Shown here in pieces: positions 1 through 24,310 of a stretch of DNA of 55,154 bases. Positions within the stretch are counted from its first letter, which is position 1; the number at the start of each line of letters is the position of its first letter. A model generated the notes under the pieces. The model worked only from the letters and a program-made list of their open reading frames with translations. It had not been told where the DNA came from and searched no databases. The position numbers and the translations under genes are program-made. The DNA comes from Prorocentrum cordatum (Eukaryota): positions 62,001 through 117,154 of the forward strand of contig CAUYUJ010000182.1 of NCBI GenBank assembly GCA_963575745.1, in the 5' to 3' direction.

Positions 1-115
1 ATTCGTAGTTCCTAGATGAGCTGAGGTTGCTCCAGGCTGCCGTGCGCCGCGGAAAGGGCAGGAGGTTTGTTTTTTTCTAACATATGTTGCGAGGGCCAGG
101 TTTACATTTCATGAT

Positions 116-3100
116 GTGGCAGATTTCCGCGAGCAATCTCCAGGAGAACTGTTTCAGAGACTATTGCCGTTGCAGGGAGAGTGCCCAGAAGGTGGAGTGA
201 CTACTTGTGGCGAGTGGGTTCGATTGATGTGTGACGCTCAGAATGGTGGCAAAGCGCTCCCCGTGGAGGTGGCGAGGCTAGGATATCATGTTGCTACGTC
301 GGCAGAGGGTTCAGACTGGTACTTTTGGCATGCCACTGCGTTGGGATGGGGCTTCTCTCGGCGACCCGTCATCGGCAACGCGCCCACCCTCAGGCAAGTG
401 AATCACGTCATGCAGGAGTTTGGGCCATTCGATTTTGATCGCTTCGAGTCTGCATTCTTGGACCTGCCAGGGGCGGTAACCCACGACTCCAGGAGCAAGC
501 CTGTTCGAACAATTCTTGATTGGTTGGACGCGACGCGAGACTTGAAGCAAATGCGGATGAAGGATGCAGCTTGTGAAAAATGGAATAAGATCATCAGTGG
601 AGCACGCGAGGTTGAAAACGCGCCGATTGAGGAGACGGTGGGCTACAATGTGTTGCGGTACGCTCGGGTACGGGTCGACTGCGTGGCCATGTTGTTGTGG
701 AGGGAGCGGTTCGCCAGGCTCGACGGCGACGGATTCGATATACATTTGCACAGCGATGGGTCACCACAATGGGCTGGGGTGGAATTGTTCGCGTCCACGT
801 TCGATATATTGACACCTTGCGCGCAGGGCCCGAGCAAGTATCATGTGGACAGGCGCCTGCTTCCGTTGATCAGCATCGGCATGTCAATGTTCAGTGCGCT
901 TGGGAAGTGTTTCGCGCTCCTCTGGCAGGTCTTCCTCATAGCTGGGCCGCGCTTCGAAGATGTTCGCAAATTTCTTAACATAGTACGCTCGCTGACAGTT
1001 GACTTCGGCACTGAGCGGTTGCTGGCGGATTACGAGGACGTCCTGCCGTGGTTCTTCGGGTCCTGAGGCGGCGTGGTGCCGTCGAGGTTTTCGCAATTCA
1101 GTCATTTGCTGCCGCGTTGCTTGTTGGCTCCAGGGTGGCGGCGCACGGTGGATCGCATCATCGGGCGAACGCGTGGCGGCTTGCCTGTCTTCCCCCTCTT
1201 TCTCCGCAGAGTCAAAGCCATCAACAATTTCGCGAGGCACTATAGGTTGGATTTGACACGGCTGCTCAAGGATGTGGAGGCGTTCGGCGCGGCCGATCTT
1301 GTGCAGACTGCGTCTTTGCCATATTTTGCGGAGTGGAGGTGGGGAACTTTACATGGCGTCTTGAAGTCGCTCGAATCCTGCATCGCGGCCGTCGTGGCGT
1401 CGATTGACCTCGGCGCGTTTATCAAGTGGCAGACGGCAACCAAGATGGTCAAAGACGTCCAGGAGGCATTCGGATCGGGGCAGTTTCACATTGAATTGAA
1501 GTTCGTGGTGTGGTTTACCAGTTGGTTGACTGAGTTGCAGAATGCAGCGACGTGGTGTCCTTGTCATTTGGGAGCTTGCAAGAGGAAGGAGTACCCTGAC
1601 TGCAACATGCGAGGCCGTATACTGCCAATCGTTCCGGATATCAGATCACATTTCCTTGCTGAATCCATTGCTACGATAGAACAGTGGACGATCACGCAGT
1701 GGAGAGATGCAAATACATTGAGGCTTTTGCAAGGCAGCGCGCGGTGGGCGCACGGCCTGATTCTCGAGGTCGCACGGTTTGCAGATATGATCCCGCACCT
1801 TTTCAGCCGACTTGATCAGCCTCATGTGAAGGAGGAGTGCGTTCGCCAGTACACGTCGGAAAGCCACGACCAGCATCATAGAGTTTCGCAGTATTTCATG
1901 GACCCCGCTGGCCCCATGCGGCGACTAGTTGATGAGGTATCGGAGGCAGGTGAGATCAACGATGAGCATCTCAAGAGGGAGGTCGAGTCCGTCGCCAACA
2001 TCAGTCTTGACGACAATGTGAATGAGAGCCCCCACGCACACGTCAAGCGCGAGATGGGCAGATGCCGTCCAGCACTCTTTCCTTGGAATGCGTCTTCTTG
2101 CAGGTTGAACCAAAACCTAGAGGACCTGAAGTACTTAGGTTCTGGAGGGGACTCGGAATTGCAGAAGTTATTGAACGTTTGCTCGTCGACCATCCAGGTG
2201 GAGAGTAGGAAGCTTGGGCGCAACCCACGGTGTACGAAACAAGTGTTCACGGACAAGCTGTACATGGTGCTCAGCGGCTTCCGCGACGGCTTTGGCGAGG
2301 GCGATGCCGAGCAGGATGACGATGGGGATGACGATTGCCCGACCTTCGACGATGTCGACGGTGGTGGCGGAGCTCTCGTCGCGCGCCGACCTCCGAAGCG
2401 TCCTAAGCCAGATGTTGCTGCCACTGGCGACGGCGGAGGTCGACGTCGGCTTCGCGATCAGGTCGACATGGCGATGCTTGTGCGTGAGTGGCTGATCAGC
2501 TCAATCAAGCAGTTCGAGTATCTGAGCCTTTGGACTATCAACGCCGATGGCAACATGCAGATCAGAGTATTCCAGATCCTGAGTTGTAACGTCAACGTCG
2601 TGAGCGTCACGACGTTCGAGAGCACCAAGCCCAATGAGTTCGGCTTGAAGGTCTGCGTCCAAGAGCTGGAGGTGTGGAAAGTGGACACCATACGCTACGA
2701 CACGAATCTGATTGACGTGTTCACGGGCTCCCCTCCAGAGCATGTCGACATGCTCGGCCTCGTTGGCACAGACGAGAGGAACAGGCGCCAGATGAAGTAC
2801 TGGACTTGGGCCGAGTCTGACTTGGACGGCTGCCTGGCGCTCGCTTCTCCACGACCGCGCTGCCCGACGGTGGAGCTCAAGGACGCGCCTGTCCTGACTT
2901 TGCTGGAGGACCGACGCCACAGGGGATGGAGGGATGAGGGATGCGTGTCAGCGCGGCAACGGTGGAGGAAGGAGAAGACAGGCTAGCGGAGGAAGGGGGG
3001 GCAGGAGGAGAGGACGGGTGAACGAGGAGGGGGAGGAGGGAGTTTTGGTTGCTATGATCCATGTTTTCGCCGGGAGTTGGAAGCCAAGGGTTTCGTCGGC

Positions 3101-3844
3101 TGCGGCCGCATCGTGACCCGCGTCCCAGGCGGCCCCGCAGAGTTCGATCATCGCAGGCTCCCATCCAAGCGTTTTTATCTGTTATGCGTCTTGGCACAGC
3201 CGCACCTCTTTAGCAACGGGTGCGTTCAATTCAAGTCGAATGGACCTCAGGCGTACTTCAAGGCATTACTGAAGGATCCAACGGCGGTGCCAGGGCTGCC
3301 AGCAATCAAATACATTGAAAATGACGGTGAATCTCACGACGGCCCAGCTCCAGCACAACTACTGGGGCTTCCGACCAGGTCGGCCACGAGTGAGGCGGTG
3401 GCGAGAGTTGATGCAGACATCGACGGCGACGATGGCTCCCTCCATCGCGCGCCAGCCCCGCTACAGCTTGCAGATGACGGCGGCTCCAGCGCGCACTCGC
3501 ACACATCTTCGTCGCACGCTTCTGTCGATGAAGGCTCCGTGGACGGAGACACCGCTGTCGGGCCAGACTCGTGCCCGCTCTTCATCGACGGCATGACCGT
3601 CACTCGGGAGTCCCACCTTGGCCGAGGGGACTTCGGACTGAGAGTGAAGTGTTCGAACCCATCTCACGTGAATTGCAGTTGCTACCGATCAGTTAAGCTG
3701 TGGACGGAGGAGTTTGGGGTTGATGCACCAGCGTTGTTTCTGAAAACGTGGATGGCCAAGAGTTTGGTCATGGATGGTTTGGCTCACAGGAGGTGGAGGC
3801 CAGGCCGCCAGGATGTCAGATTGCATGTCCTTGCGGACTCGTGA
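116..3844 (+). pseudogene. Degenerate DDE (hAT-like, RNase H fold) transposase-like gene, ~1190 codons, with a C-terminal Cys/His domain; probably 5'-truncated by the window edge
   Basis: ORFs 116-1066, 1073-2986 and 3077-3844 share one frame. They are separated only by one TGA (1064-1066) and a 165-168 bp purine-rich insert (2909-3076). Motif order IHLHSDGSPQ (D at 755), SLTVDFGTE (D at 1001), AEWRWGT (1334-1342), DDNVNESPH (E at 2024) resembles hAT D..D..RW..E. A probable frameshift lies in the T-run near 70-77. Confidence 0.55.
2909..3076 (+). other. Short insertion or candidate GA-AG intron (introner-like) flanked by GGAG direct repeats
   Basis: It splits PVLTLLE|(E)LEAKGF and carries an in-frame TAG (2984-2986). 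GGAG occurs at 2905-2908 and 3073-3076. Removing 2909-3076 (168 bp, GA...AG) or 2909-3073 (165 bp) restores the frame. Confidence 0.6.
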
Positions 3845-5199
3845 GGTGGATGTGCAAGCGTTCGTTGCATGACGGATGTGCCATGGAGCGTTTGGCTCCA
3901 TGGACTTGTCGTCGGCGTTCCGCCGTGCAAAACACATGCGAACAAATGCTAACGCTATCGTCACAGCCACCTCCGACCCCGAAGAGACGCCCCCAGCACG
4001 CCTGCACGACCGCACTGCGATAACCACGCCACGCGCAGCACATACACTAGCAACCTCAAGCGTGCAATCCATGTACAAGCACTGCGCAATCACACGCGTG
4101 ATAACACCACACTCGCACGCGCGCGGTATATCTTACTGGCCCTAGTTGCGTAAACCTGCCCCGTATGGGGCGGGACCCTGAGGGAGGGCGAAGCCTAAAT
4201 TAATAAGTCTGGGGGGGGGGGGGGGCTCGGAGTCCGACTTGGCTGGTGGACCCTGCTAGCTGGTATCAGCGTAATGGGGCCCGTTTCGACAAAACCCCAA
4301 TTTGGGCACCCCCCTTGGCTATGGCCTCGATTGGGCGGGGCCCTTTGGCGTCAGGCCGTTTCGAGCGAGGCGCTGTGGGACGGGGCCTCGCTCCGCGATC
4401 CTCGGGGGAGGGGCACCACCAGCGCAAAGCTGGTGGTGCAACTTGTTGGGGCGGGCTTTTCAGTGCGAAAAGCTTCGGGCACATCACCTTGTGGTCTCAG
4501 CGTGCCTCGGCTTGCCGATGATTGCGGGATCCAGTGATCGGGCAGGGGGGCGAAAGGGAGCGAGCGGGCTGGCGGGCAATGGTTTCGCGGCTCTGCTCCG
4601 CATTGGCTCGATGGCTGCAAGGCGCAGCCGCCGCGAACCGTTCCCGAATTACACACAGCAGGTCGCCGATGCTGAAAACAGCCCAACGAGAAACCGCCAC
4701 TAAGGCTCGTTGGGGCAACGTGCGCGCAAACGTTGCACCACCGCGCGGTTCGTGGCATCTAACGTGCCACGCGACGTTGCCCGCGTTTGGGTTTGCGCGC
4801 GCTCAAGGATCCATTGGCCGTGGCCCGCTCCACATATAATCTGGACCCGCGGGTTGGATGCGGCGCGCCAACAAACAAGTTTACGCTTGAAGCGCACGGA
4901 GGCAACCACAACCCCAACCGACGGCCACGTTGAAGTACGAACAACACCTCTCAGGCAACGCAAGCAAGGCTCCGAACCACCCGCGCCGAACTGATGGGGT
5001 TCCCAGCATGCGCACAACGCGGCTGGCGGAACCGAAGCGATGCCCCGAGGTTGCCCAGCCGAAATGTACTCGTCATTTACGCTGGTTAACTTTGGCCACA
5101 AACCACAAAACCCGAAATGCCCGTAGGCTACGACAGCAACAGGGGTGGATTACGGACGACAAGCGGCGGCGCCATCAAGAGTTTGTCCTGGCTTGCACT

Positions 5200-7700
5200 T
5201 GAACTACGATCGCGACCACGTGAACCACCCTGGGGCAGTCCTGATATGCCCTTACGCTGCGCGCATGCCAACGGTGGGCAACGAGCGACCAACATTTGAA
5301 CCACCCTGAACTAGTTCTGAACAGCGATTGAACTGCGAGCGCGACGACGTGGGTCAACTTGCATTAACACTGAACTGTTCTTGGGCTACGCAGGTGCCAG
5401 CGGTAGGCTACGGGCGACCACAAGCTGAACCACGCTGGCCTAATCCTAAGCTGTTCTTGGGCTACGGGCGCGGCGACCTTCGCGACCTTGGGCTAATCCT
5501 GAACTGCTCTTGAACTACACCACCCACAGCGGTGGTTTACGGACAAGCAGCAGAGGCACGCTGAACTACTCCTGAACTACAACTGAACTACAAGTGCGAC
5601 GACCTGAACCGCGCTGAACTAGTCCTGAACTACCCTTGAACTACAGCGACGCCTTTGATGGGCGATGGGCTGTCACAAGCTGCACCACGCTGAACTACTA
5701 CTGCACTATTCTTGAACCACCAGAACAAGGACCTGAACTACCCTGAACTAGTCCTGAACTACCCGTGAACTACACGGCCGACAGCGACGGACCGAAGGCG
5801 TTACGGGGTTGAGCCACGCTGAACTGCTCCCGAACTACTCTTGAACTACGCTCGCGACGACCTGAACCACGCTGAACTATTTGTGAACTATCCTTGAACT
5901 ACATGGATGCGAGCGGCGGGCGGCGGGCGACCACAAGCTGAACCGCCCTGAACCAGCCCTGAACTACACTTGATCTACATGCGCGACGACCTGAACCAAC
6001 CTGAACTACTCTTGAACTAGTCTTGAACTGCAACGCCCACAGCAGCGGTGGTATATGGACAAGCAGCAGCGGAACCACGCTGAACTACTCCTGAACTACC
6101 CTTGAACTACAAGCGCGACGATCTGAACCACCCTGAACTAGACCTGAACTGCCCTTGAACTACAGCGATGCTTGCGATGGGCGATGAGCGACCACAAGCT
6201 GAACCACGCTGAACTAGTCTTGCACTACACTGGAACTACAAGCGCGAAGACCTGAACTACCCTGAACTAGTCCTGAACTACCTTTGAACTACACGGCCGA
6301 CAGCGGCGGACCGAAGTCGCCCAGGGGCTGAACCACGCTGAACTACTCCTGAACTACTCCTGAACTACGCGCGCGACGACCTGAACCACGCTGAACCACT
6401 CTTGAACTACTATTGAACTACATTGGTGCGAGCGGTGGGTGACGGGCGACCGCAAAATGAAACACCCTGAACTACTCCTGAACTACTCTTGAACTACGCG
6501 CGCGGCGACCTGAACCAACCTGAGCTACTCTTGAACTAGTCTTGAACTACACGACCGAATGCGACGGGCCGAAGGCATTCAGGGGTTGAACCACGCTGAA
6601 CTACCCCTGAACTACACTTGGACTACGAGCGCGACGGCCTGAACCACGCTGAACTACTACTGAACTACTCTTGAAACACAGCGCGGGCAGGAGTGCACCA
6701 TGGATCAGCACAAGCTGAACCACTTCGAACTAGTCCTGAATTACACTTGAACTACGCGCGCGACAGCCTGAACCACACTGAACTACTCTTGCACTACGCT
6801 TGAACAACAGCGTGCACAGGCGTGTGCCATGGACTAGCACAAGCTGAACCACCCTGAACTAGTCCTGAACTACACTTGAACTACGCGCGCGACAACTTGA
6901 ACCACCCTGAACTACCCCTGATCTACTCTTGAACTACAGCGCTCACGACGGTGGGCGCGTGGCTGCCAGTGGTCGAACCACCCTGAACCACTGCAGCACT
7001 TTTCGCCAACTACGATTGCGACGACGTTAGCTACCCCGAACTAGGCCTGTACTTCTTTTGAATTGCGCGGATGCGGGCGGCGGGCTACGGACGACCACAA
7101 GCTGAACCGCGCTGAACTACCCCTGAACTATTCTTGAACTACGAGCACGACGACCTGAACCACCCTGAACTAGCCTTGAACTGTTCTTGAACTACATTGA
7201 TGTCAGTGGTTGGCGATGGACAAGCAGCAGCTGAACCACGCTGAACTGCTCCTGAACTACCCTTGAACTACGAGCACGGCGACCTGAACCACCCTGAACT
7301 AGTCCTGAACTGCTCTCGAACTACAGCGATGCCTGATGAGCGATTGGCGACCACAGACTGAACCACGCTGAGCTACTCCTGAACTACCCTTGAACTACAA
7401 GCGCGGCGACCTGAACCACCCCGAACTAGCCCTGGACAGCCCGCGACCTACAATATTTACATTGTGCGCGCGCGGGCTGCCATAGGCTGAACCAACATGA
7501 ACTAGTGCCGAACTACTGGCGACTTACGCGCGAGGCGACCTGGACCACCCCGAACTTCAACTGAACTGCCCTGGGTCTACGCTAAGAACGGCGGTGGCGC
7601 ACGGGCGTCCGCAGTCTGATCCACCCCGAGCTTGCCCTGAACTGCGTTTGAACTGCGCGCGCGACGGCCTGAACCACCTTGAACCAGCCCTGAAATGCAT
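5200..7700. repeat. Left arm of 129-bp TGAAC-box tandem array (~19 units, decaying at both edges)
   Basis: Repeated (C/T)TGAAC(T/C)A boxes in groups of four with a CGCGACGRCC linker. A 4-unit higher-order repeat of 519 bp is visible (5645/6164, 5774/6293, 5903/6422). Confidence 0.95.
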
Positions 7701-8774
7701 TTGAATTGTTATTCCGGCAGCGGGGGGCGGCTTGCGATCAAGTCCACCACGTCGAATCACACTTGAGGTGCACGTGAGCACCACCTCCATGTTCCCACGA
7801 GCGGGGCTGGACGGGTGGGCTGCGGCCGCGTCGCGAAATACGAGGGTGCTTCGCGACGCTCTCCTCGCACCAATGGTGGCGCGTGTCGCGCCGCTGCTGG
7901 CAGTGACGGTGGAAGCGCGTTGCTTGGGCGCTTGCCCCGCGCGTTCAAGTCGAGACGGCGGGGCGCCGTCGGCGCGCCTTGGGGCGCCAAGCGCCGCCGC
8001 GCTCGCCAACCGCCTCCCTATGCCAGCGGCGTGGTGTCCAACTCGAGGGTGTCACCGGTTGGGGCTCCTGTTCGGACGCGCTGCGGGACGTCGGCGGTCG
8101 TCGATGGCGTCGGCTCGCGGGGCGGCAGTGTGCGCGACAATTCTGTGTGCGGCTGAGTGGTGCGGAGGCTCGATGTGTATGAAACCATGTGATTTCATAT
8201 GTTTCCGCGCGTGTCGGTTTGTATGCGGTGGGCGGCTGCGCGGCCGCAGTGCGCACGCCGCCCGCCGTCGCGGGCGGCGACGCAGTGCGCCGCGCCAGTG
8301 GTGTCTTCATGTGCGCGGGGCGGGTGGCGAGGGGGGCGCTGCTCGGCGGTCTACGCGGCGCGCTTGGAACTCGCGCGCGCAGCGCTCCGCACGCGCGGCG
8401 GGGGCGGCTGTATTGGGGGGGGGGGGGGGGTGCGCGCGGCAGCCTGACGTCCATAGCCAGCCTTTCGTTGGCCATCTTGCACTGCGACCCCATCGTGTTC
8501 GCAAGGGTTTTCGCTATCGCGGGCATCGCGTGGGCGCGCCTTGGGTGGAATCCGCGAGTTGTGGGGCGCGCGCCAACCGCGTCGAATGACGTTGCGACGC
8601 AAATTGTCTAGGCCTGAACCGCGCGGGCGATTTCCGCGCGCAGCCTGAGGGGCGCGGTGTATACATGCGCTGTCAGACGACGCCAGTAGTGCATCGAGGG
8701 TGATCAGGGGCCACAGCCCCTGAACCCCGTCGGGGCTATGCGGGGCGGGCGGTCGCGATCACCTGGCAGACTTT

Positions 8775-13973: not shown

Positions 13974-13995
13974 ATCGTAGCCATTATGATTCAGG
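13974..13995 (+). other. Relic dinoflagellate spliced leader (DinoSL-like)
   Basis: ATCGTAGCCATTATGATTCAGG versus DCCGTAGCCATTTTGGCTCAAG, 17/22 ungapped, ending 76 nt before ATG 14072. Confidence 0.7.
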
Positions 13996-14071: not shown

Positions 14072-16693
14072 ATGTCCGTCTCTGGAGACGACGTTGACGC
14101 AGCGGAGATGCGGCCTCCTACAGCCCCGCCAGTGGCTCGCAGGAGGAGTTCTGCCAGCGATCATGCTGCTCACACCAAGGCCGAGTTCGCAGGCGCATGC
14201 TACTTCTGCCAGGAGCCGTTGCGCCCTAAGGACAACACCAAGACATGGCACGGCTACGTCTTCCACGCTAGCCCGTGCTGGAACAACATTCGGGCTCGCC
14301 AGCGCGTCTGCTATACCACCCAGAACGGCCTCAGGCGCGAGCTCGAGTTGATGAACGGCGATCCTGAGAAGTGGCGCTGCGAGGCGATGCAGTTCGATCG
14401 GCCTCACTTGGATAGCAACCGATTGCATGCGCGCGAAGCTCTGACGAAGCAGCTTGCAGACTACGTGCTCGAGCTGCAGCGCATGGCTGAGCTGACCTTG
14501 ACTGACACCGCGAAGTACACCAAGGCACAGTACAAGAAGGCGAAGTTGAGGGGCATGGATTCGGACGAGGCGAGCGCCGACTGGGACAGTGAGTACGCAG
14601 AGCACCCGACGGTCAACAAGAAGGGCGAGACGTGCATTGCCATTGAGGGCCCCGAGGTGACCAGGAAGTTGGAGGGGACGGAGCGCCAGGGCGTGAAGCG
14701 AGGTCTGATCGAGTCGGCGCCTGGAACCTCCTCTTGGAGCTCAGGGGCGGCGTCTTCTGGTGGCGATGGGGCTAGTCCAGCTTCGGGGCGAACTGGCGGG
14801 AAGAGCGGCGCCAGCCTGACGGAGATGAACATCCAGCGCCTCACGGATGCATTCAATGAGATTAGAGAGGATGACGTTATCTCAGTGGTGAGCACGCGCG
14901 CTCGCGGTTCACGCGGCGCCCGCTTGGCGCCGCAGCTGCAGCCGTCGCAGGGCTTCCTGAAACAGAAGGATGACATCGGCACCACGCTTCGGGAGATCGT
15001 CTCAAGCATCGACGGCAGCAAGAAGGAGATCGGCGCGATCAAGAAGCTCCAGGCGCTGCACACCAAGGCCGTGGAGAAGAACATTGGGGTGGGGGGTCTA
15101 CCTCATGACGTCAGCACGGTGATCGGCGACCTCTCTCGCGTGAGCTCGTTGGCCAAAGGCGAGCTCGAGAAGATCGGCCCCGCCAAGGTGGATGCAGTTC
15201 CATCTCTCGAGGAGGCGCTAACGAACATCCAGAAGCAGAAGTCCACGTGCCTCGAGCAGGTGCAAACTCTCACGGATCAGTTGAATTTCAAGTTCCAGAA
15301 GGCTTGCTCTGAGCAGAGGTCCGAATACCAGAAGAACCGCTGGGAGAAGACGAAGATCCAACATATGCTCAGCAAAGGAGGCTTTGGCCTGAACTTGTCC
15401 AAGTGGGCGTCGGAGCAGATCCACAGCACGGATAGCTTTAGTGGCGCCAGCACGGATGGCATGATCTGTTTGTGTGAGAAGGCGCAGCTCAACCCCGAGG
15501 ACGGTTCCTTCGACGTGGCCAAGCTGGCTCTCTTCACGGGCGAGAGCCCCAACGAAGACTGCCAGTCGCATAGTGTGTGGTGGGGCATGAAGTTGCTGCT
15601 GGACGATGCCGCGAAGGTCTTCATCGACAGCAAGATCACCAGCATGAAGGCTGAGATGGCCAACCACCCGCTGTGGCCAGGTGCGATGGGGGGGGTGTCA
15701 GATTGCTTCGCAAACGTCGACGCGGTCGCCACCTTGGGCGCGCAGAGCACCAAGGAGAAGGGCTCGGAGTGCTGGCTCGTGTGTGCGAGAGCTGGCGTCT
15801 ATCGCATTGGTCCTCAGAGCGTGCCCATGCCAGGCACGCCATCGATCCTTGTCGCCATGGACAAGCCGCTCTTGGTCCACGCCGTGCGCATGAAGGACTT
15901 CTTGGGCCAGGGCATCGCCGTGAACAACTACGAGCAGTTCCTCGCGACAGCGACGGGAGCAGACATCATCAAGCAGTCAACGTTGGTGATCGTCAACCCA
16001 GGGGACAGCTTGTACGTTCCCACGGCGTGGTGGTGGTCCTTGACGGTGATCGCGGGGCTCCGCGACACGGTTGCATCAGACGAGTCGAGGGCGAAGGGGC
16101 CACCGAAGGCGAAGGCGAAGGCTTCCGCCACGGCTCCAGCTCCAGGTCAGGACACGGTCGGCATGGCCACGGTGGTGCCAGTCTACTCCCCGTCGCTTTG
16201 GGGCGCCGCCCAGAGCAATGAGCAGGGGGCGATCGTCGCTTTGAACAAGGCCCACTTCGACACGAAGAAGTGTCGTGCGATGTGGGATGAGCGTGCCGCG
16301 GCATTCGGACAAGTGTTTGCCACCTCGTCGGTGAGATGGAGCTTCGAACCTAACAAGGCCCATGGCTGCGCGCTCTGGGTCAACGCATGGCAGTCCCAGC
16401 TGGTGGCACGGACATTGATGCGAGGCCCTTGCAAGCTCAGGGTGGAGTGTTTCATCAGACATGGGCGCCCGAGATCCCTTCATCAGGGCGATCGCCGTGG
16501 CATTTCATTCATTGCCTCCCCCACCTCATCATGCCAATGTGTTGTTGCATATGTGGAGCTTCGCTCTATGCACCCTGATGTTTATAATACCTGGAGCTTC
16601 GCTCTCTGCACCCTGATGTTTACTATTCCCAGAGCTTCGCTCTCAGCACGCCTGGTGTTAAGTATATCTGGGCATTCGCTCTGTAAAGCTTGA
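14072..16693 (+). CDS. Intronless hypothetical protein: N-terminal Cys/His motif, predicted coiled-coil middle, C-terminal cupin/DSBH-like motif
   Basis: Long open frame with GC3-rich codons from ATG 14072 (MSVSGDD) to ~16330. Motifs CYFC..HASPC and IVNPGDSLYVPTAWW. The 13721-14071 extension and the tail after ~16330 look non-coding. Confidence 0.75.
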   Translation: MSVSGDDVDAAEMRPPTAPPVARRRSSASDHAAHTKAEFAGACYFCQEPLRPKDNTKTWHGYVFHASPCWNNIRARQRVCYTTQNGLRRELELMNGDPEKWRCEAMQFDRPHLDSNRLHAREALTKQLADYVLELQRMAELTLTDTAKYTKAQYKKAKLRGMDSDEASADWDSEYAEHPTVNKKGETCIAIEGPEVTRKLEGTERQGVKRGLIESAPGTSSWSSGAASSGGDGASPASGRTGGKSGASLTEMNIQRLTDAFNEIREDDVISVVSTRARGSRGARLAPQLQPSQGFLKQKDDIGTTLREIVSSIDGSKKEIGAIKKLQALHTKAVEKNIGVGGLPHDVSTVIGDLSRVSSLAKGELEKIGPAKVDAVPSLEEALTNIQKQKSTCLEQVQTLTDQLNFKFQKACSEQRSEYQKNRWEKTKIQHMLSKGGFGLNLSKWASEQIHSTDSFSGASTDGMICLCEKAQLNPEDGSFDVAKLALFTGESPNEDCQSHSVWWGMKLLLDDAAKVFIDSKITSMKAEMANHPLWPGAMGGVSDCFANVDAVATLGAQSTKEKGSECWLVCARAGVYRIGPQSVPMPGTPSILVAMDKPLLVHAVRMKDFLGQGIAVNNYEQFLATATGADIIKQSTLVIVNPGDSLYVPTAWWWSLTVIAGLRDTVASDESRAKGPPKAKAKASATAPAPGQDTVGMATVVPVYSPSLWGAAQSNEQGAIVALNKAHFDTKKCRAMWDERAAAFGQVFATSSVRWSFEPNKAHGCALWVNAWQSQLVARTLMRGPCKLRVECFIRHGRPRSLHQGDRRGISFIASPTSSCQCVVAYVELRSMHPDVYNTWSFALCTLMFTIPRASLSARLVLSISGHSLCKA
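16555..16644. repeat. 38-bp tandem repeat, ~2.3 copies
   Basis: GAGCTTCGCTCT(A/C)TGCACCCTGATGTTTA units start at 16555 and 16593, with a partial copy at 16631. Confidence 0.9.
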
Positions 16694-17725: not shown

Positions 17726-17890
17726 GATAACAGGTTTGCCAGAAACATGGTTGCCCGAAAACGGGTTTGCCAGATAACAGGGTTCACCACTCATCACATT
17801 TTCCGAAATACCGACGTGCAGATGACACATGTGCCAGATAGTATGTATCCCGTAATAACAGATTCGTCATATAACAGATTTGCCAGATAA
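17726..17890 (+). promoter_or_regulatory. Cluster of ATAACAGRTTTGCCAGATAA-type boxes upstream of the nuclease gene
   Basis: Copies at ~17726, 17766, 17832 and 17871; the same motif recurs at 19508-19551. The regulatory role is inference. Confidence 0.45.
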
Positions 17891-17993
17891 TTGATGATAG
17901 ATTGACGCGCGTACAATTGCAAAACATGTTTAGATGGGTTGCCTTGTATATGATTGCCGTTGGCTCAATCTTGTATTCGTGAGATCTTACTGA

Positions 17994-18059
17994 CGTGGCT
18001 CAGCTTTGCTGGCCTGTTCACTTTCCGCGTCTTGGCGTGGCTCAGCTTTGCTGGCCTGT
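17994..18059 (+). promoter_or_regulatory. Two copies of a conserved 24-nt 5' hairpin motif (CGTGGCTCAGC-TTT-GCTGGCCTGT)
   Basis: Identical copies at 17994-18017 and 18036-18059, upstream of ATG 18115. Confidence 0.6.
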
Positions 18060-18114
18060 CCACTATCAGTAACTATAGGACCAGCTTTGCTGTCCTATCG
18101 TCTCGTTGTCATCA

Positions 18115-19318
18115 ATGGCCGCTCCTGTCTCTCGCCAGATCCTGGTGTGTTTCAACCACTTGCTGCCCGACATCGCGGCGCGCGGTGTGCCGCTGGAGAG
18201 GCTCGGCTTCAAGCCTGGCGACTGGGGCAGCGGAGTCGCCTCGGCTGTCGCCGTCGACGCGTGGGACTTGGCCGCGCCGCTGGAATACGGATTCAGAGCG
18301 ACCGATCGCTGCGCCAAGGTCCTTTCCGTGGCGGTGGCGGCGTTGAGTCGCCCAGTTCAGTGGCCGACCATGAATGCCATCGCCCAGCCGCAGTTGGGCC
18401 GCCGAACCGTTAAGAGCTGTCCCCGGTGGGCGCAGTCGTGCGCGTGCGCAGTGCCCGCCGGGGGGGGGGCGCGAACAGTGACCGCGCTATCCAGCCAGCC
18501 CCGTCGCTCGAGCTTGGCGGTCGTCCTGAGCGACGAGAACGCTGCGGGCCGCGCCGGAGGCTGCTCTCCTGCACGAGTTTCTTGTGTCGCACGGTGCCTG
18601 CGACGCCGAGATCTGCGCCGAGGTGAAGGCCACTGCGAGAGCGGCTCCCCGCCTGGCATGCCTGATGGAGAGTTTATCCCTCTCGGATCCGGAGATCGTA
18701 GAGAAATGACGCCTGAACAAGGAAGAGGCGGCTAGGCGGGGCACCTGGATGCACTGGACGTTCGAGGCCCACCTCAACCGCGTTCCGGTACCCCGCGACG
18801 CCGTGGAGTTCCAGTTATTCCTGAAATACTTGGGCGCGCTGAGAGGTCTGACGGCTTTCCGCGCAGAGTGGGCCATATTCGCCGGGCACGAGGGGCTTGC
18901 TGGGTCAATCGATTTCGTGGCTCGAGACTCCGCGGGCAGCTTGTACATATACGATTGGAAGCGGGCGAAGAATTTACGTTCAAAGTACACGAACCCGTTG
19001 CAGAATATGAAGTTTCCATTGAGCCGATGGCCAGACTGCCAGGGAAACTATTACCGGGTGCAGCTCAACATTTACAGGTGGATGCTGGAACGTTACTACG
19101 GCGCCCGCGTGGCTGCGATGCATGTGGTCTGCCTGCATCCGGACAACGGCGACCAGCCATTCGTGGACGACGTGCCGGTGATCCCAGAGATCGAGGAGCC
19201 CATGGCCATTCAACGCACGAGGTCCCGAGAGTTGCGAGCCATGGCATCGGAAGACGCTAGCGAGATGGACCCTCTGGGCGGCTGGCCGCGGCCAGTCGTA
19301 GCGGCGCGCTTGCCTTAA
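18115..19318 (+). pseudogene. PD-(D/E)XK (RecB/Cas4-superfamily-like) nuclease, disrupted
   Basis: RGTWMH just 5' of ORF 18749, then FRAEW, GSIDFV..IYDWKR and YRVQLNIY. An in-frame TGA lies at 18707-18709 (EIVEK*RLNKEEAARRGTWMH) and a frameshift near 18680. The 5' extent is uncertain. Confidence 0.8.
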
Positions 19319-19641: not shown

Positions 19642-19664
19642 ACCGTAGCTGTTTTTCTCTCAAG
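19642..19664 (+). other. Relic DinoSL-like sequence
   Basis: ACCGTAGCTGTTTTTCTCTCAAG keeps the SL 5' octamer ACCGTAGC, the T-run and the 3' CTCAAG; it lies upstream of ATG 19801. Confidence 0.65.
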
Positions 19665-19678
19665 GACCATCGCTTTGG

Positions 19679-19702
19679 CGTGGCTCGGCTTTGCCGGCCT
19701 GT
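19679..19702 (+). promoter_or_regulatory. Conserved 5' hairpin motif, variant CGTGGCTCGGC-TTT-GCCGGCCTGT
   Basis: Same motif as 17994 with a compensatory A-T to G-C stem change. Confidence 0.6.
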
Positions 19703-19800
19703 CATTTAACTATCTGCATCGCTAGCCCTTGCCGGCCTGCTGCGCTGCCTCGTGGAGGATCGGCATTGCTGTCCTGTGAGTTGTCCTGCACTTTGGCGCA

Positions 19801-20595
19801 ATGGCCACCGACGCGCAGCGCGCTGCCGGCCCCCCGTTTCTGAGCTCGCAGTCCCCTGAGCTGAGCGACCCCACGCCGCGCGGGAGGCCTCGCCAGCGGC
19901 GCGCTTACTCTGGCGCCCGCTCGCTGACGCCGGCGCGCAAGAAGCATCGACTGTCCTCGCGGGCTGCGCGCGCGGCTGCAGCGCGAACCCCTTCATCGTC
20001 GCCGGAGAGAGACGACGCCGCTGACATCGAGGCTTTCGCGCTGATGGTATCAAGGGTCTCAGATGAAACATTAAATTCTATCATGTCATGCTTCCCTGCC
20101 GTGCGGAGACGGACATTAGCGCGTCGTTTCGCACGGGATCAACAGATTCGCCAAGACAGAACGTTTATACTCGTGAGGCCGGTCGGTTCGAGCAGGCCGC
20201 GGGCCTCGCGTGGCCCGCGCGGCGCCGGAGTGCCCGGAGCCCTTGCTGTTGTGCCTCGCTGGTTTCAGCCTGCCAACGCAGAACTTGCCTCGGCGACAGC
20301 CCCGAGCCTAGTACACGATCGCTGTTTCATTTGCGGGTTGGATGACGGCGACGTCGACGGCATCGGCCACTATCTGGAGGGGTGCGTGGCCACGGTGAGA
20401 TCATTTCCGTTCCCAAATGTTACCCTTTTGCGCGCGACGACCTCCGCGCGGGCCATGTTGGCGCAGCGGTTGGAACCTCGCGGCGACGCATTCGCGTGCG
20501 CGCGGTGCAGCGGGGTCTGCGTCGCCTGGGAAGACACCCTGAACATAGATCTCGCTTCCGATATGCTCGGACTGCACAGGCGACAAGCGGTTTGA
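19801..20595 (+). CDS. Hypothetical 264-aa protein, Arg/Ser/Pro-rich N-terminus, Cys/His-rich C-terminus
   Basis: ATG-started ORF after an SL relic and the hairpin motif; CFICG..GHY..C and CARC motifs. Possibly degenerate. Confidence 0.4.
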   Translation: MATDAQRAAGPPFLSSQSPELSDPTPRGRPRQRRAYSGARSLTPARKKHRLSSRAARAAAARTPSSSPERDDAADIEAFALMVSRVSDETLNSIMSCFPAVRRRTLARRFARDQQIRQDRTFILVRPVGSSRPRASRGPRGAGVPGALAVVPRWFQPANAELASATAPSLVHDRCFICGLDDGDVDGIGHYLEGCVATVRSFPFPNVTLLRATTSARAMLAQRLEPRGDAFACARCSGVCVAWEDTLNIDLASDMLGLHRRQAV

Positions 20596-20903: not shown

Positions 20904-20971
20904 CGTGGGTCGGCTTTGCTGCCCTGTGCTTTCTTTGTCGTGCCACCTGTGGGTCGGCTTTGCCGCCCTGT
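20904..20971 (+). promoter_or_regulatory. Two more copies of the 5' hairpin motif (GTGGGTCGGC-TTT-GCYGCCCTGT)
   Basis: Copies at 20904-20927 and 20948-20971, preceded by GGCTCAAG (SL 3' end) at 20884-20891 and followed by ATG 21005. Confidence 0.6.
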
Positions 20972-21004
20972 TTTTTGTTCTACCACCTCCCCGCACTATC
21001 TCAC

Positions 21005-23251
21005 ATGCGCGGCGCACTCGCTCAGCAGGGGCAGGACGCTGCAAGGCTCGCGCCGGCGCCGACTCGGAGACGGATCAGAGGCAAGAGCGCGGCGGACGAC
21101 GTCGGCGAGAGCTGGGTGTGCCTCGCGGCCGAGCAGCGCGAGCCCCACGAGCTCGCGGACGTGGGCTCGGCGGAGACACCTGAATCCCCGAGCGGCGATG
21201 AGGGTGAGACAGTGGTGCGGACAGAGTTGTTCGACTGCCTGGAAAATGAAGTCAAGAGCTACTCTGCAGGGGTGAAGCTCCTGCGCCCCAAGCGGGACAG
21301 CGAGGGCGTGCAGTTGAAATTTGCTTGCGGTTTATGTCCGTTCCGGTCGTTCTCGACGCAGGTACTCCTGGCCGCGCACGTCTCGAAGTACCACCTCAGA
21401 AAGACGCGCTTCGTGGCCTCTGGCACGAAGCAGTTCAATGTCGTGTGCGCGTTGTTCGACAACGACCGGCTTCTGCGAGCTCCAACGGGGAACCTTCTGA
21501 GGCGGTCTGCAGCGGTCCTGCGGGAGACAGTATCTCCTGCCGTTCATCGCGGACAGAATGCCATTGACAAGGATATTGTCCTAGTTCTCGACGACGACGG
21601 GCCCTCGTATCAGAACAAGGCAGCGGTGGGGCAGAATCTCGCGTGCAGACGAGCGGGGTACACGTGCTATACCCGTGGCTTCGCCGATATCCTGTTGCAG
21701 GAGTCCTTGCGCCACCATGGGCGCGCGCGCCCGGCGATGCTGCGGGCGTGCGCTCGCGTCGCGGAGCAGGGCTCCGAGTTGAGCAGCATGCTGCCGACCG
21801 CCGTTGAGCACTGGCTAGAACTTATGGAAGACGTGTTCAACTGCGCGCACGTAGAGAGGCGCAGCGCTGCGTTGATGGAAGAATGCCACCGACGCAAGGA
21901 ATTCCTCCACATCTCCATGGACGCCACTATCCGCATTCTGCGCAACGTCAAGGGCCAGGCAGACTATCGGTCTGCACAAGCAGTGCGCGATGCTGCACCC
22001 GTGCCAGACGTGGACGCCAAGTGCCGCGTTCTGACTCTCGCGGGCCGGACGGGGGCGGCGCTCGGCGTTTTTTTGACGAAGGACGAGGGGGCTGATGAAA
22101 TAGCTGGAGCCCTTGCAGCTCGTTGGTCGGCGGCGTGCAGATCGCAGACGGCGTCCGTCGCCAGTGACCAGCCGAGCAGCGCGCTACTCCGTGTCTTGCG
22201 AGGTTCATGTTTTCCCAATTTATCGGTCTTGAGCCTCGACCCTGTTCATCTGCCCATCACGTACGAGGAGACGCACTGGAGGAAAAAGACAGTGGGATCG
22301 CGATTATTGCGGATACTAGTGGCCAAATTTACGAAGGTGGATTGCACGCTGCCCGCGCACTACTGGGGGGCGCCGTTCGACGGGACGAACGCCCCGAACC
22401 TGCAGCCAATAGAGGAGCGCGCGCGAGCACAGATACTCGATCATTCACTGGTGAAGTCGCGAGCTCAATACGTTATCGACAACGTGAACGCCGAGCTGCC
22501 ATGGAAAACGACGCACGAGTTCATCGAAGCTATCGCCGCGCTGAGCGCATTGGTTCCAGAAGAGCTTGCTCGCCGCACTCGCGTGAATAACGTTCAACTC
22601 AAGAGATTGCTTTACAATGCGACCGCCCCAGCCCGCATGCAATGGTTCTTCAATAATCAGCGATTCAGGCATTCCTTGCCGGCGGCGCGCTCAGCCCTGT
22701 TGGGGTCTGGCACGTCCGTCAACAAACCCTTCGACCACGAAATCAACGCGTGGTTTCGCAACCAGGGAGACTTCTACGCTTCGACGGCGGAGCTGCAACT
22801 TAGGATTGGCTTCTTGGGCAAGCTGCAAGCCCACAATTGCGCGCTGTATTCGCCGACGCTGCGGCAGCTGCGACAGGCCAACGTGCTATCGCGAAGCATT
22901 ATGGCATGGGCTTTCCCCGTGGATGATTGGAAGAGTTACTGTGCGCTCCTGGAGCAGCGCGGCGCCGACGTCCTGGCGCCCGCGCGGCTTCCGCTCCGCG
23001 AAGCCCGACAGAGAGTCGCACGGCTGATTGCCGAACGCGCCGCGTGCGCTCGGGGAAAGCCAGCGGCGCGCGAGGCCGGGACTGCCGGGCGGCGCGGTGC
23101 TCAGAAGAAACCCGCTGCAAGGGCGCTCTTGGACAGTCTGCGCGATCGCAGAGTGCCTAGGATCAAGAGAACAGCTTTCACTTTGAAACGCAAGCCCGCG
23201 TCGCGCGGCGCTGCTGGCGAAGCCCCCGCCGCGCGCGCTCGCCAGCGGTAG
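21005..23251 (+). CDS. C2H2 zinc finger + DDE transposase-like protein with DxxH signature (MULE/ISL3/KDZ-like), possibly catalytically dead
   Basis: CGLCPF..HVSKYH; ISMDAT (D at 21920), ASDQP (D at 22166), LDPVH (22238-22249); SGTSVNKPFDHEIN where E would be expected (AAA at 22724). Basic RRRIRGK and KKPAA termini. Start chosen at the first ATG after the hairpins. Confidence 0.65.
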   Translation: MRGALAQQGQDAARLAPAPTRRRIRGKSAADDVGESWVCLAAEQREPHELADVGSAETPESPSGDEGETVVRTELFDCLENEVKSYSAGVKLLRPKRDSEGVQLKFACGLCPFRSFSTQVLLAAHVSKYHLRKTRFVASGTKQFNVVCALFDNDRLLRAPTGNLLRRSAAVLRETVSPAVHRGQNAIDKDIVLVLDDDGPSYQNKAAVGQNLACRRAGYTCYTRGFADILLQESLRHHGRARPAMLRACARVAEQGSELSSMLPTAVEHWLELMEDVFNCAHVERRSAALMEECHRRKEFLHISMDATIRILRNVKGQADYRSAQAVRDAAPVPDVDAKCRVLTLAGRTGAALGVFLTKDEGADEIAGALAARWSAACRSQTASVASDQPSSALLRVLRGSCFPNLSVLSLDPVHLPITYEETHWRKKTVGSRLLRILVAKFTKVDCTLPAHYWGAPFDGTNAPNLQPIEERARAQILDHSLVKSRAQYVIDNVNAELPWKTTHEFIEAIAALSALVPEELARRTRVNNVQLKRLLYNATAPARMQWFFNNQRFRHSLPAARSALLGSGTSVNKPFDHEINAWFRNQGDFYASTAELQLRIGFLGKLQAHNCALYSPTLRQLRQANVLSRSIMAWAFPVDDWKSYCALLEQRGADVLAPARLPLREARQRVARLIAERAACARGKPAAREAGTAGRRGAQKKPAARALLDSLRDRRVPRIKRTAFTLKRKPASRGAAGEAPAARARQR

Positions 23252-23499
23252 CAGATGCCGATTTTTATCTATTCGTCGGCGCTCAAAGTTTCCATTCCGT
23301 GCCCTTCCTCTCCCTATGCGCACTTTCTCTGAGTCGGTCTCGGGGTCATGTCTTCGGTAGAGTCTCAAGACCTTACATCCATGGGCGCCTGAAGCATAGC
23401 ATAACAGAAGGGATAAGGGTAGTGATGGAGTGAAAATACGGAAAGAGAGGGGACGCACATTATACCACAATCGTCCCCTTACATATATATATATATACC

Positions 23500-23792
23500 C
23501 GTATCTATCGTCAAAGAATGGCAGTGCACGGCCGTATCTATTCGTATTGCATTTTGTCAGAACGGATGTTGTTGGCTGTGCTCTCGGAGCGAACAAGATC
23601 CATGATATTGGTCGACGCAATGAGGAATGGGATGGGGAGAGTGGGAAGCAGTATCGATGAGGAGCGAAGAGACGAGTGACAACGACAAAACGACGAGGAG
23701 TAGGTTGGATAAGAACGACGAAACGAGATTTCAAACAGAACCGGGTAGGAACAGGGATTCAGAGGAAGTGGATAGCAACGAGGAGGAGGAGG

Positions 23793-23828
<36 letters not shown>

Positions 23829-24310
23829 AGGAGGAGGCTGAAGACGAGGACGAGAACGAGGAAGATGCTCAAATGGAAAGTGAAAGGGGTGGTGCGGGGT
23901 GCGGGCGAGGAGGTTTTAGGAGTACTGGCGGGGAGGTTGACGACGACGATGCGTTGAGGCAGGAGGAGAGGGGCCCAGGGAACGGAGGAAGGAAAAAAGA
24001 AGGAGAGCAATTACGACGCGGAGGACGAGGACAATGAGTAATGTGCATTGTCTTCCCTGTTCGTGGTCATTGAGCGGCCCAGGTCTGGCAGTGGAGACAT
24101 GGCGCCGTATCTATCCGTACCTGATTTTGGTCGACATGTTTTACAGCGGTGGGCGCCATACTGAACCGTATCTAAACATACATCTATATATGGCCGTATA
24201 TAACAATGTCCCTGTATCTAAATTTACACAACACGTGCCTCCCGAATCGAAATGCGTAAGAAGTCGTATCCAAACGTGTATATGTTTGAAACAAAGCTAC
24301 TCGTATCTAA
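23500..24310. repeat. Dispersed CGTATCTA-type boxes in AT-richer DNA, interrupted by a purine-rich GAG tract
   Basis: Copies at ~23500, 23533, 24106, 24167, 24213, 24265 and 24302. Confidence 0.7.

Follow-up and report, generated by a model that had tools for sequence, protein, structure and literature searches.

Four apparently unrelated components in a 24-kb block of the Prorocentrum cordatum genome, including a defective copy of a putative three-gene DNA transposon

Genes and repeats of the locus

The window analysed here is a stretch of 55,154 nucleotides from the dinoflagellate Prorocentrum cordatum. Its first 24,310 positions had been proposed, in a sequence-only reading, as one large cargo-carrying mobile unit bracketed by two unrelated transposase genes. 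The five long ORFs of this block are co-oriented, all on the + strand, and the block is poor in microsatellites, as that reading had stated: no array of period ≤6 lies before 23780, and many are present from 24.7 kb on. The identified features are collected in Table 1.

Table 1. Features identified in positions 1-24310 of the window
Feature	Position	Strand	Remarks
ORF A, decayed hAT-like (Hermes-fold) DDE transposase gene	1..3844	+	Predicted fold of a relative; family matches
129-bp satellite array 1	5196..7434	+	17.4 copies, 71% matches
GC-rich spacer between arrays, about 1.1-1.4 kb	7700..8810		No coding signature
129-bp satellite array 2	8869..11634	+	21.4 copies, 82% matches
Weak dinoflagellate spliced-leader look-alike	13975..13995	+	16/21 bases; 77 bp upstream of ORF B start
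ORF B, low-copy single-exon gene	14072..16441	+	Strong coding signature, GC3 0.79
Direct repeats of ~16 nt (TAACAGRTTTGCCAGATAA type)	17726..17892	+	Repeat families D17, D18; second cluster at 19501-19553
Three tandem stem-loops (GGN-N-CNGC WTT GCNG-NCC)	17997..18095	+	Last ends 10 nt before ATG 18106
Coding-like 5' fragment joined to truncated exonuclease	18106..18540	+	GC3 0.81
PD-(D/E)XK exonuclease fragment, Cas4/lambda-exo type	18542..19318	+	Pfam PDDEXK_1, PHROG 298
Two stem-loops, same family as 17997..18095	19682..19774	+	Last ends 26 nt before ATG 19801
Small ORF, 264 aa, Cys/His-rich C-terminus	19801..20595	+	Conserved in other copies
Two stem-loops, same family as 17997..18095	20907..20968	+	Last ends 36 nt before ATG 21005
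ORF D, N-terminal C2H2 finger and IS256/Mutator-like DDE core	21005..23251	+	Frame intact
(TA)n tract, approximate right limit of module	23483..23498		Contigs of other copies stop matching
Five exact CGTATCTA repeats downstream of module	23500..24309	+	0.44 expected; 0/100 shuffles reach 5

ORF A, a decayed hAT-like transposase gene

The first gene had been listed as an open frame at 116-3844. A long + strand frame is indeed present, but it is not open, being interrupted by the in-frame stops TGA (1064-1066) and TAG (2984-2986). A frame change lies near 44-68, and the gene extends beyond the 5' end of the window. An intact relative, P0012 (62% identity), carries Leu at the place of the first stop, and the tail at 2987-3841 is matched by 51 of the best 150 members of the family, which comprises 1921 representative clusters at 50% identity.

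The DDE-like assignment of this gene holds by predicted fold. The structural comparison was made with the intact P0012 rather than with the decayed window copy; its model (pLDDT 82.7) aligns with Hermes at Z 19.0 (rmsd 4.2 over 412 residues; E 7.3e-7 by Foldseek), the next unrelated fold reaching 8.2. The family model covers residues 107-609 of Hermes (PDB 4d1q/2bw3), a range comprising the catalytic core, insertion domain and C-terminal portion, and the Asp, Asp and Glu residues are conserved in the family (D303, D385 and E727 in member A3). Two features set these proteins apart: (i) no Pfam hAT dimerisation or BED domain was detected in any of the 15 members scanned; (ii) a length of about 1300 residues, roughly double that of Hermes. 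Judged by the modelled fold, the window contains, as ORF A, the last four kilobases of a hAT-like transposase gene that is now dead. Hallmarks of hAT elements are terminal inverted repeats of short length and target-site duplications of 8 bp.

The 129-bp satellite

The period of 129 bp given in the sequence-only reading was recovered, but the repeats form two arrays and not one. Array 1 is built on an 11-bp YTGAACYAC sub-repeat, and 203 of the 204 + strand matches to TGAAC[CT]A[CG] in the window fall within 5.2-11.6 kb. By their sequence, the arrays form a self-contained satellite based on the 11-bp motif and show no sequence connection to the ORFs. The ORF at 7705-8589 in the spacer is probably non-coding, because its GC content stays flat from one codon position to the next (0.73/0.71/0.67) and the family search gave nothing for it.

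ORF B

The frame of ORF B remains open to 16693, with the coding signature gone in the last 250 bases. Its sole match is P0013, the deposited gene model of the same locus; no other relatives were found. P0013 consists of 1116 residues encoded by six exact segments of the window and chains ORF B to the nuclease; if transcripts support this model, the two are at least co-transcribed. As annotated, the deposited P. cordatum model thus joins ORF B with a broken transposon gene.

The description of ORF B as cupin-like stood only as a lead: the Pfam Cupin_8 match (13.5 bits) is below the cut-off of 27.4, while the language-model (Atlas) lead is 0.87, with JmjC in 10 of the 10 best named matches. The positions expected to hold His are occupied, as judged by eye, by Asn and Trp (NVD; WWWS). 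It is possible that the C-terminus is a degenerate JmjC/cupin-like domain. The spliced-leader look-alike upstream of ORF B is not significant on its own, since shuffled windows yield about 1.1 such matches at ≤6 mismatches.

Exonuclease, small ORF and ORF D

The three genes downstream of ORF B encode an exonuclease fragment, a small Cys/His-rich protein and a second transposase. The nuclease recognised earlier was supported by Pfam PDDEXK_1 (E 1.3e-6; 29 bits, cut-off 22) and by PHROG 298 "exonuclease" (E 6.2e-15), the latter at profile positions 101-238 only. The P. cordatum gene model P0004 covers positions 44-239 of this profile, for which E ranges from 6e-15 to 3e-19. The window copy therefore has no N-terminal third (the first ~100 profile positions), its 5' part being cut at 18541. 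The core motifs IDFV...YDWK...QLNIY are readable in the sequence, and the Cas4 model is weakly matched (21.9 bits, cut-off 65). The frame contains a TGA at 18707-18709, where contigs of other copies have G at 18709, giving TGG (Trp). The small ORF shows 73% identity to its counterpart in the gene model P0005 and 72% to that in copy L001, and gave no match in the family search, which included Pfam and PHROG.

The DDE-like call for ORF D likewise holds by predicted fold. The model (pLDDT 78) aligns best with the transposase of ISCth4 (PDB 6xgx/6xg8), at Z 13.7, rmsd 3.8 and 272 residues (Foldseek probability 1.0); three ISCth4 entries rank highest (Z 13.7, 13.1 and 12.0), followed by PFV integrase (9.5) and Hermes (9.4). 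Atlas gives a Mutator-like transposase as a lead (0.87). The likeness to the Mutator/MULE superfamily and the related bacterial IS256 family extends to the following features: (i) D306, D388 and D412-x-x-H415 are conserved in the family, the D-x-x-H lying 24 residues past the second Asp; (ii) Glu is present at position 574 in 11 of 11 cleanly aligned relatives; (iii) a zinc finger is located at the N-terminus. From its conservation and position, E574 is presumed to be catalytic, and the window copy carries Lys there. Pfam MULE, Mutator and Transposase_mut gave no match for ORF D or seven relatives. Comparison with the 91%-identical copy L001 yields a dN/dS of 0.19 over 553 codons. Distant relatives possess an extra fused N-terminal domain of ~450 residues.

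Stem-loops in front of the module genes

The shared 5' motif GCTTTGCYGSCCTGT noted in the sequence-only reading has seven matches in the window (≤2 mismatches), all on the + strand, compared with 0.62 expected by chance, and none of 100 shuffles reaches seven. The matches lie in three groups, each shortly before one of the ATGs at 18106, 19801 and 21005, so that each module gene has two or three tandem 7-bp stem-loops in front of it. Both stem-loops before ORF D are kept in L001. Across nine related copies, all 63 of 63 cells are paired, as against 30-64% in slid controls, and compensatory changes are seen in two of the seven stem pairs (GC/CG/AU and GC/AU/GU); the score for covariation in these copies is 0.389, compared with 0.165 after shuffling, and 0/500 shuffles reach it. 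The stem-loops bearing G-U pairs have energies of -8.7 and -8.9 kcal/mol on the + strand versus -3.8 and -5.2 kcal/mol on the - strand. The shared motif thus appears to be a stem-loop that covaries and pairs best on the sense strand. Such a sense-strand structure with G-U pairs suits RNA better than a DNA promoter. The direct repeats further upstream of 18106 and 19801 are promoter-like.

Extent and copies of the three-gene module

The linkage of 17.7-23.3 kb, formerly drawn from the common 5' motifs, was strengthened by the recurrence of the gene order at other loci. The order nuclease, small ORF and ORF D is found at two further P. cordatum loci, in the gene models P0004 (spanning nuclease and ORF D) and P0005 (spanning all three genes), on contigs of 52 and 834 kb. 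At the metagenome locus L007, a nuclease with 38% identity to that of P0004 lies 4 kb upstream of a co-oriented ORF D relative, also of 38% identity. In total, five P. cordatum gene models belong to the module family, on five different contigs and with 61-88% identity. Relatives at 30-50% identity occur on many metagenome contigs with differing neighbours, and the best frame contains stops at 7 of the 21 related loci.

The limits of the module were approached through contigs of other copies. Contigs of three sequencing runs diverge just before 18541; one of 1697 nt (run X2) has only its first 652 nt on the window, ending at 18540. In run X1 the summed contig depth, which is not a copy number, is 8-24 at 11.7-18.6 kb, 17-68 at 18.6-23.4 kb (above 36 in 8 of the 11 bins) and 5-11 after 23.8 kb. 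On the right side, loose contig ends lie at 23454 and 23497, and the summed depth drops after about 23.4-23.8 kb. The element may extend to the left of 18541, to ~17.7 kb, because the repeats and stem-loops before 18106 resemble those before 19801; the present copy may reach that far, or it may be a rearranged variant.

Mutator/MULE-IS256 elements carry terminal inverted repeats and 8-11-bp target-site duplications. By comparison, searches of the truncated copy in the window and of L007, L002 and L004 revealed neither terminal or long inverted repeats nor target duplications around the module, and the CGTATCTA repeats have no inverted partner anywhere in the window. Since the ends of the module were not found, its transposition is deduced from the enzyme and the dispersed copies. 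We infer that the module, about 17.7/18.5-23.5 kb, is a defective member of a multi-gene family of DNA transposons; this cut-and-paste family with three genes is seemingly undescribed. The exonuclease gene has lost its 5' end and is interrupted by a stop, and Lys replaces the presumed catalytic Glu of the transposase; for these reasons the window copy would be unable to move alone, and it is regarded as dead on its sequence.

Interpretation of the block

Taken together, positions 1-24310 probably represent four unrelated components, namely the 3' part of a dead hAT-like gene, a satellite, ORF B and a defective copy of a three-gene DNA transposon, and not one cargo-carrying mobile unit. The parts of the block occur independently, and the same gene order between common ends was not encountered at the 21 related loci or among the best 150 ORF A family members, so that the single giant unit of the sequence-only reading was not upheld for the block as a whole. 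Copy number and adjacency are judged here by contig depth, by gene models and by 21 metagenome contigs, most of them short.

The alternative that fares best, although it is itself improbable, sees in the module a duplicated, non-mobile cluster of domesticated host genes. It agrees with the purifying selection on ORF D, with the element ends missing from the window and the three other loci inspected, and with the deposited annotation, which lists parts of the module as host genes. Against it stand the divergence of the copies and their location on five different contigs, the decay of many relatives as well as of the window copy, and the presence of distant relatives among varied neighbours in the metagenome contigs.

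Even less likely is a giant composite DNA transposon, formed by the whole 24 kb or by the stretch from ORF A to ~24.3 kb, in which cargo genes, the satellite and two transposases would belong to one element, present here as a rearranged copy. The co-oriented ORFs and the scarcity of microsatellites relative to the rest of the window could be read in its favour, and since ORF A runs past the window start, a left end could lie beyond. The co-orientation, however, is expected anyway, because dinoflagellate genes form long unidirectional arrays, as described in PMC11071213. The parts of the block differ in family size and in summed contig depth. Neither ORF A nor ORF B relatives were found in the flanks of any of the 21 metagenome loci bearing an ORF D relative, and none of the best 150 ORF A family members contains ORF B, nuclease, small-ORF or ORF D sequence. 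Contigs of other copies break off at 18541 and ~23497, and a search of the window for terminal inverted repeats gave none. Compared with the giant cargo-carrying eukaryotic transposons (reviewed in PMC6431247), the block shares several co-oriented genes beside a transposase gene but has neither common boundaries nor an overall conserved order.

The least probable reading takes 17.7-24.3 kb for a fragment of a large DNA virus, or of a virus-like element, that was endogenised and has separate transcription units under a common promoter motif. It can draw on the motifs upstream of three consecutive genes, on the PHROG 298 phage family and on distant relatives of the exonuclease (24-34% identity) at 13 IMG/VR loci, some on 124- and 322-kb contigs. 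Against it, exonucleases of the PD-(D/E)XK type are common in cells as well as in mobile elements, neither transposase found a relative in viral contigs, BFVD gave no match to the ORF D model at E ≤0.001, no ORF matches capsid, polymerase or packaging families, and the motif fits RNA better than a DNA promoter; the endogenised viral segment also suggested in the sequence-only reading accordingly received no support.

Comparison with known transposons and a possible mechanism

The multi-gene transposon family has partial counterparts among described elements. Some MULEs bear additional ORFs, such as mudrB, mutB and vanB/C, and the module resembles them in this respect; the introduction of PMC6446971, which names these ORFs, lists neither a PD-(D/E)XK exonuclease nor a small Cys/His ORF, and the words exonuclease, nuclease and dinoflagellate are absent from the text of that paper. 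The nearest precedent for a transposase and exonuclease pair is ISL2EU of the PHIS superfamily, a DDE cut-and-paste element whose second ORF has a YqaJ exonuclease domain, given in PMC4482050 as of unknown role. Its transposase is of PIF/Harbinger type with THAP and HTH (PMC4482050), whereas ORF D is IS256/Mutator-like, and YqaJ and the module exonuclease are compared here by description only.

In the proposed mechanism, the transposase would cut and paste the element, the exonuclease would resect DNA ends arising from excision or insertion, the gaps then being repaired by recombination, and the stem-loops would act within sense-strand RNA leaders, controlling expression of the genes of the element. 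It is conceivable, though rather doubtful at present, that 17.7-24.3 kb represents an undescribed dinoflagellate multi-gene Mutator-like class, with the stem-loop leaders as an element-specific signal. Such a class would combine a transposase with a recombination-type exonuclease, its relatives adding a Cys...His domain and ankyrin repeats within one giant frame, and the leader of tandem, covarying RNA stem-loops before every gene might control translation, spliced-leader addition or RNA handling, in an organism for which little regulation of transcription is assumed.

Dinoflagellate genomes are huge and repeat-rich, and to our knowledge their DNA transposons are almost uncharacterised. Recognition of the block as a patchwork prevents a false call of a giant transposon. 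Neither transposase is recognised by Pfam, and the family of ORF A counts some 1900 clusters at 50% identity. The module family would improve the repeat annotation of dinoflagellate genomes, and a Mutator-like family with an exonuclease partner and stem-loops would offer a testable example of a mobile element that might organise its own gene expression in a dinoflagellate.

Organization of the block

Analysis of the first part of the window (1..24310, here called the block) makes it likely that this DNA is a patchwork, in which only a module of a nuclease, a small ORF and the transposase ORF D is a linked mobile unit. The sequence-only reading had described five long co-oriented ORFs in DNA poor in microsatellites; the five ORFs are present on the + strand, and in the output of Tandem Repeats Finder arrays of period ≤6 are absent before 23780 and numerous from 24.7 kb. 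It had also called two of the genes unrelated DDE transposase-like genes, in agreement with structure models that match Hermes (ORF A family) and ISCth4 (ORF D). Copy number and adjacency were judged from protein collections, metagenome contigs and contigs of public sequencing runs.

Coordinates of the features in the window and in the metagenome contigs L002 and L007
Feature	Position	Remarks
ORF A	1-3844	single frame; in-frame stops at 1064-1066 and 2984-2986
G-rich tract	4140-4210	downstream of ORF A
G14 run	about 4203-4216	downstream of ORF A
First array	5196-7434	
Second array	8869-11634	
Leader 21-mer match	13975-13995	77 bp upstream of ORF B
ORF B	from 14072	coding signature ends near 16441
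Gene model P0013	14072-19315	six segments
Tandem repeat, 38 bp	16554-16682	3.4 copies; end of ORF B open frame
Inverted repeat, 12 bp, perfect	16700-16736	GTCGAATGGCAT / ATGCCATTCGAC
G-rich tract	16790-17030	downstream of ORF B
Leader look-alikes (by eye)	17953-17966; 19643-19665; 20885-20896	end GGCTCAA / CTCTCAAG / GGCTCAAG
Coding-like fragment	18106-18540	GC3 0.81
Nuclease frame	18542-19318	TGA at 18707-18709
P0013 'intron'	18623-18721	GT..AG
Small ORF	19801-20595	
ORF D	21005-23251	transposase
CGTATCTA repeats	23500-24309	five exact, + strand
L007 frames	1603-11653 (L007)	ankyrin repeats, 1131 aa; nuclease, 626 aa; no-family ORF, 713 aa; N-domain + transposase, 962 aa
Tandem repeats and (TA)n tract	4058-5899, 8589-8943 (L002); 12695-13927 (L007)	94-384 bp; 3' of transposase ORF

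The block had been proposed to form one mobile unit, a reading with which the common orientation of the ORFs, the scarcity of microsatellites and a possible left end beyond the window are compatible. The deposited model P0013 ('PD-(D/E)XK endonuclease-like domain-containing protein', 1116 aa), whose sequence six segments of the window reproduce exactly, also links ORF B with the nuclease, though one of its 'introns' takes out an in-frame stop and, with it, sequence that belongs to the coding part of the paralogue P0004. P0013 is probably a chimeric annotation, chaining ORF B to a broken transposon nuclease. Against a single unit, the families of the parts are of very different size. None of 150 ORF A family proteins (the best of 1921 clusters) carries other parts of the block, the array motif is restricted to the arrays, and other copies break off at 18541 and about 23497. 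Gene order within the module recurs elsewhere: the gene model P0004 spans nuclease and ORF D, P0005 includes the small ORF as well, and L007 has a nuclease relative upstream of its ORF D relative. Relatives of ORF A or ORF B accompany ORF D relatives at 0 of 21 loci. Terminal inverted repeats were not found in the window; the search for terminal repeats there and in L007, L002 and L004 gave only short inverted pairs (16-29 nt, 72-95% complementary), not at plausible ends. An endogenised viral segment, proposed as another origin, is disfavoured, as IMG/VR contains no relatives of either transposase, BFVD gives no match with E ≤0.001 for the ORF D model, and only the exonuclease has viral relatives, distant ones.

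A single array with a 129-bp unit had been described; the repeat is real and is divided between two arrays. Built on an 11-bp sub-repeat, YTGAACYAC, each unit is made up of 76 + 53 bp. The 8-mer TGAAC[CT]A[CG] has 204 + strand matches in the window, 203 of them inside 5.2-11.6 kb, most commonly spaced by 11, 10 and 21 nt. As the motif is missing outside the arrays, it was ruled out as subterminal repeats of either transposon. The inter-array DNA is without a codon-position GC signature and without a family match. Rfam gave no family in the window, and the by-eye impression of a reverse transcriptase at 26363-27034 was dropped, Pfam giving no family for this ORF.

ORF A and ORF B

The in-frame stops of ORF A, a Hermes-like model and DDE-type residues together indicate that it is a dead copy of a predicted hAT-like transposase gene. 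The alignment with its intact relative P0012 (62% identity) begins at the first bases of the window; ORF A therefore starts outside the window, with a frame change near 44-68. P0012 has Leu at the first stop (TGA in the window), and among the 150 best family members 51 match the piece 3' of the second in their C-terminal part, which makes this stop internal as well. The family counts 1921 representative clusters at E ≤0.001, with a full length of about 1300 residues, and Pfam gave no family in any of 15 members scanned. An AlphaFold model of P0012 (40 relatives as input, pLDDT 82.7), standing for the family, matches the Hermes hAT transposase with a Foldseek E of 7.3e-7 and a VIA-align Z of 19.0 (rmsd 4.2, 412 residues, spanning Hermes 107-609); ISCth4, the next fold, scores 8.2 and RAG1 5.6. 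The conserved D303, D385-G-E and D-D-x-x-x-E727-x-P-H are compatible with a DDE site. Sequence-profile searches of solved structures gave nothing useful for ORF A, ORF D or the nuclease, and no match for ORF B.

ORF B had been read as a cupin-like gene. Its coding signature is strong (GC3 0.79 vs GC2 0.48); the cupin/JmjC likeness is only a lead, Cupin_8 reaching 13.5 bits vs a cut-off of 27.4. The Atlas score is 0.87, all ten best named clusters are JmjC, and inspection by eye shows that the His residues usual for metal binding are not conserved. The sole relative among 5.8 billion clusters, in the searched length range, is the gene model of the same locus. The end of the open frame carries a tandem repeat followed by a perfect inverted repeat. 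G-rich tracts of the type GGGGCGGGA...GGGAGGGCG lie downstream of both ORF A and ORF B, and are possibly a common downstream signal or mere GC-rich filler.

Proteins of the module

The window comes from a dinoflagellate; close relatives of its proteins (61-97% identity) carry the name Prorocentrum cordatum in their sources. The protein collection contains 11 relatives of ORF D, among them five P. cordatum gene models, each on a different contig, and metagenome contigs contain 21. Its structure model (19 sequences, pLDDT 78.1) best matches the IS256-family ISCth4 transposase (Foldseek E 4.7e-3, probability 1.0; VIA-align Z 13.7, rmsd 3.8, 272 residues), the next fold scoring 9.5. The family keeps (i) a C2H2 finger (C108, C111, H125, H130); (ii) D306 and D388; (iii) D412-x-x-H415; and (iv) Glu at position 574, present in 11/11 cleanly aligned relatives vs Lys in the window ORF D. 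Comparison with L001, a 91.7%-identical DNA copy on a metagenome contig, gives a dN/dS of 0.19 over 553 codons.

The nuclease named in the sequence-only reading is borne out, its frame matching Pfam PDDEXK_1 above the cut-off and also the phage family PHROG 298 'exonuclease'. The latter profile is covered at 101-238 only, vs 44/45-239/245 in P0004 and L007. The TGA stands where P0004 has Trp, and the base at 18709 is G in contigs from three runs. Pfam and NCBIfam gave nothing for the small ORF.

The nearest precedent is ISL2EU, whose elements combine a DDE transposase with an ORF for a YqaJ exonuclease, described as having an unknown function (PMC4482050). In the P. cordatum genome paper repeats were masked and transposon-like gene models removed, and such elements are not described in its accessible portion (PMC10666404). 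The text of a eukaryote-wide Mutator survey lacks the words dinoflagellate, Symbiodinium, Alveolata, exonuclease and nuclease (PMC6446971). This family was not found in the titles and abstract openings of literature on dinoflagellate hAT/Mutator and on Mutator-like elements with an exonuclease, a scope outside which most subscription journals and Repbase reports lie.

Limits of the module

Contigs of four public runs (X1-X4) were placed on window 11700-24650 at 80% likeness, and stretches without contig cover in X2-X4 were left out of the evidence. The summed contig depth of X1, which is not a copy number, is 8-24 up to 18.6 kb, 17-68 over 18.6-23.4 kb (>36 in 8/11 bins), 26 in the bin after 23.4 kb and 5-11 past 23.8 kb. 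Two X1 contigs and one X4 contig diverge directly before 18541, and an X2 contig of 1697 nt matches the window in its first 652 nt only, ending at 18540. The right side has a concentration of loose contig ends between 23454 and 23497, at a (TA)n tract. The depth and the breaks therefore set the multi-copy unit in the window at 18541 to about 23497, with its 5' end cut relative to other copies. Upstream of the left break lies a coding-like fragment, preceded by repeats of the same kinds as is the small ORF, so that the window copy probably arose by internal deletion or rearrangement. Just past the point where other copies stop matching, exact CGTATCTA repeats occur without an inverted partner, together with several near-copies found by eye, all on the + strand.

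Stem-loops upstream of the module ORFs

The 5' motif reported as common to three ORFs was recovered: seven matches, all on the + strand and vs 0.62 expected by chance, form three clusters, one immediately 5' of each of the ATGs at 18106, 19801 and 21005. A gap-free alignment of nine copies, seven from the window and two from L001, gives a stem-loop of the form GGN-(N)-CNGC / WTT / GCNG-NCC, in which 63/63 cells are standard pairs. Sliding the partner by 1-3 columns lowers the pairing to 30-64%. In two of the seven pairs both partners vary (GC x4, CG x3, AU x2; GC x4, AU x3, GU x2), and the covariation score, 0.389 vs 0.165 shuffled, was reached by 0/500 shuffles, for nine copies related by descent. 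Where copies contain G-U pairs, folding is clearly better on the + than on the - strand; this speaks for a function in sense-strand RNA or single-stranded DNA. From the end of the final hairpin to the ATG the distance is 10, 26 and 36 nt in the three clusters.

A spliced-leader relic was rejected as an identity of the motif: the leader 16-mer has no match at ≤3 mismatches, and the sole 21-mer match at ≤6 mismatches (16/21 bases) is within chance. Each stem-loop cluster has, 25-40 nt on its 5' side, a short look-alike of the 3' part of the leader, noted by eye.

Distant relatives of ORF D

In L007, an ORF D relative of 38% identity has a nuclease relative 4 kb upstream on the same strand. The four long frames are co-oriented and nearly abutting, and the ankyrin and nuclease frames share one reading frame with one stop between; the stretch has the look of a single giant reading frame, some 3350 codons long, with a few breaks. 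Pfam and NCBIfam gave nothing for the L007 ORF 6915-9056. The tandem repeats with a (TA)n tract in L002 and L007 echo the (TA)n tract of the window, 235 bp past the ORF D stop, which may be coincidence.

P0008, P0010, P0011, L002 (3-1700), L004, L007 and L014 (3-790) carry some 450 additional residues at the N-terminus, a domain without a match in Pfam and NCBIfam. Motifs conserved in this domain include D-L-D-I-x-N-A, S-L-H-F-D-G-x-R-x-D, G-N-C-I-P and P-H-C; as a guess, the Gly-Asn-Cys...His motifs may mark a cysteine protease, and the N-terminus of P0004 may be OTU-like. Residues 168-239 of P0004 are weakly like this domain (E 3e-4 and 5e-3, set of 11 sequences), which suggests that the domain may move around within the element family.
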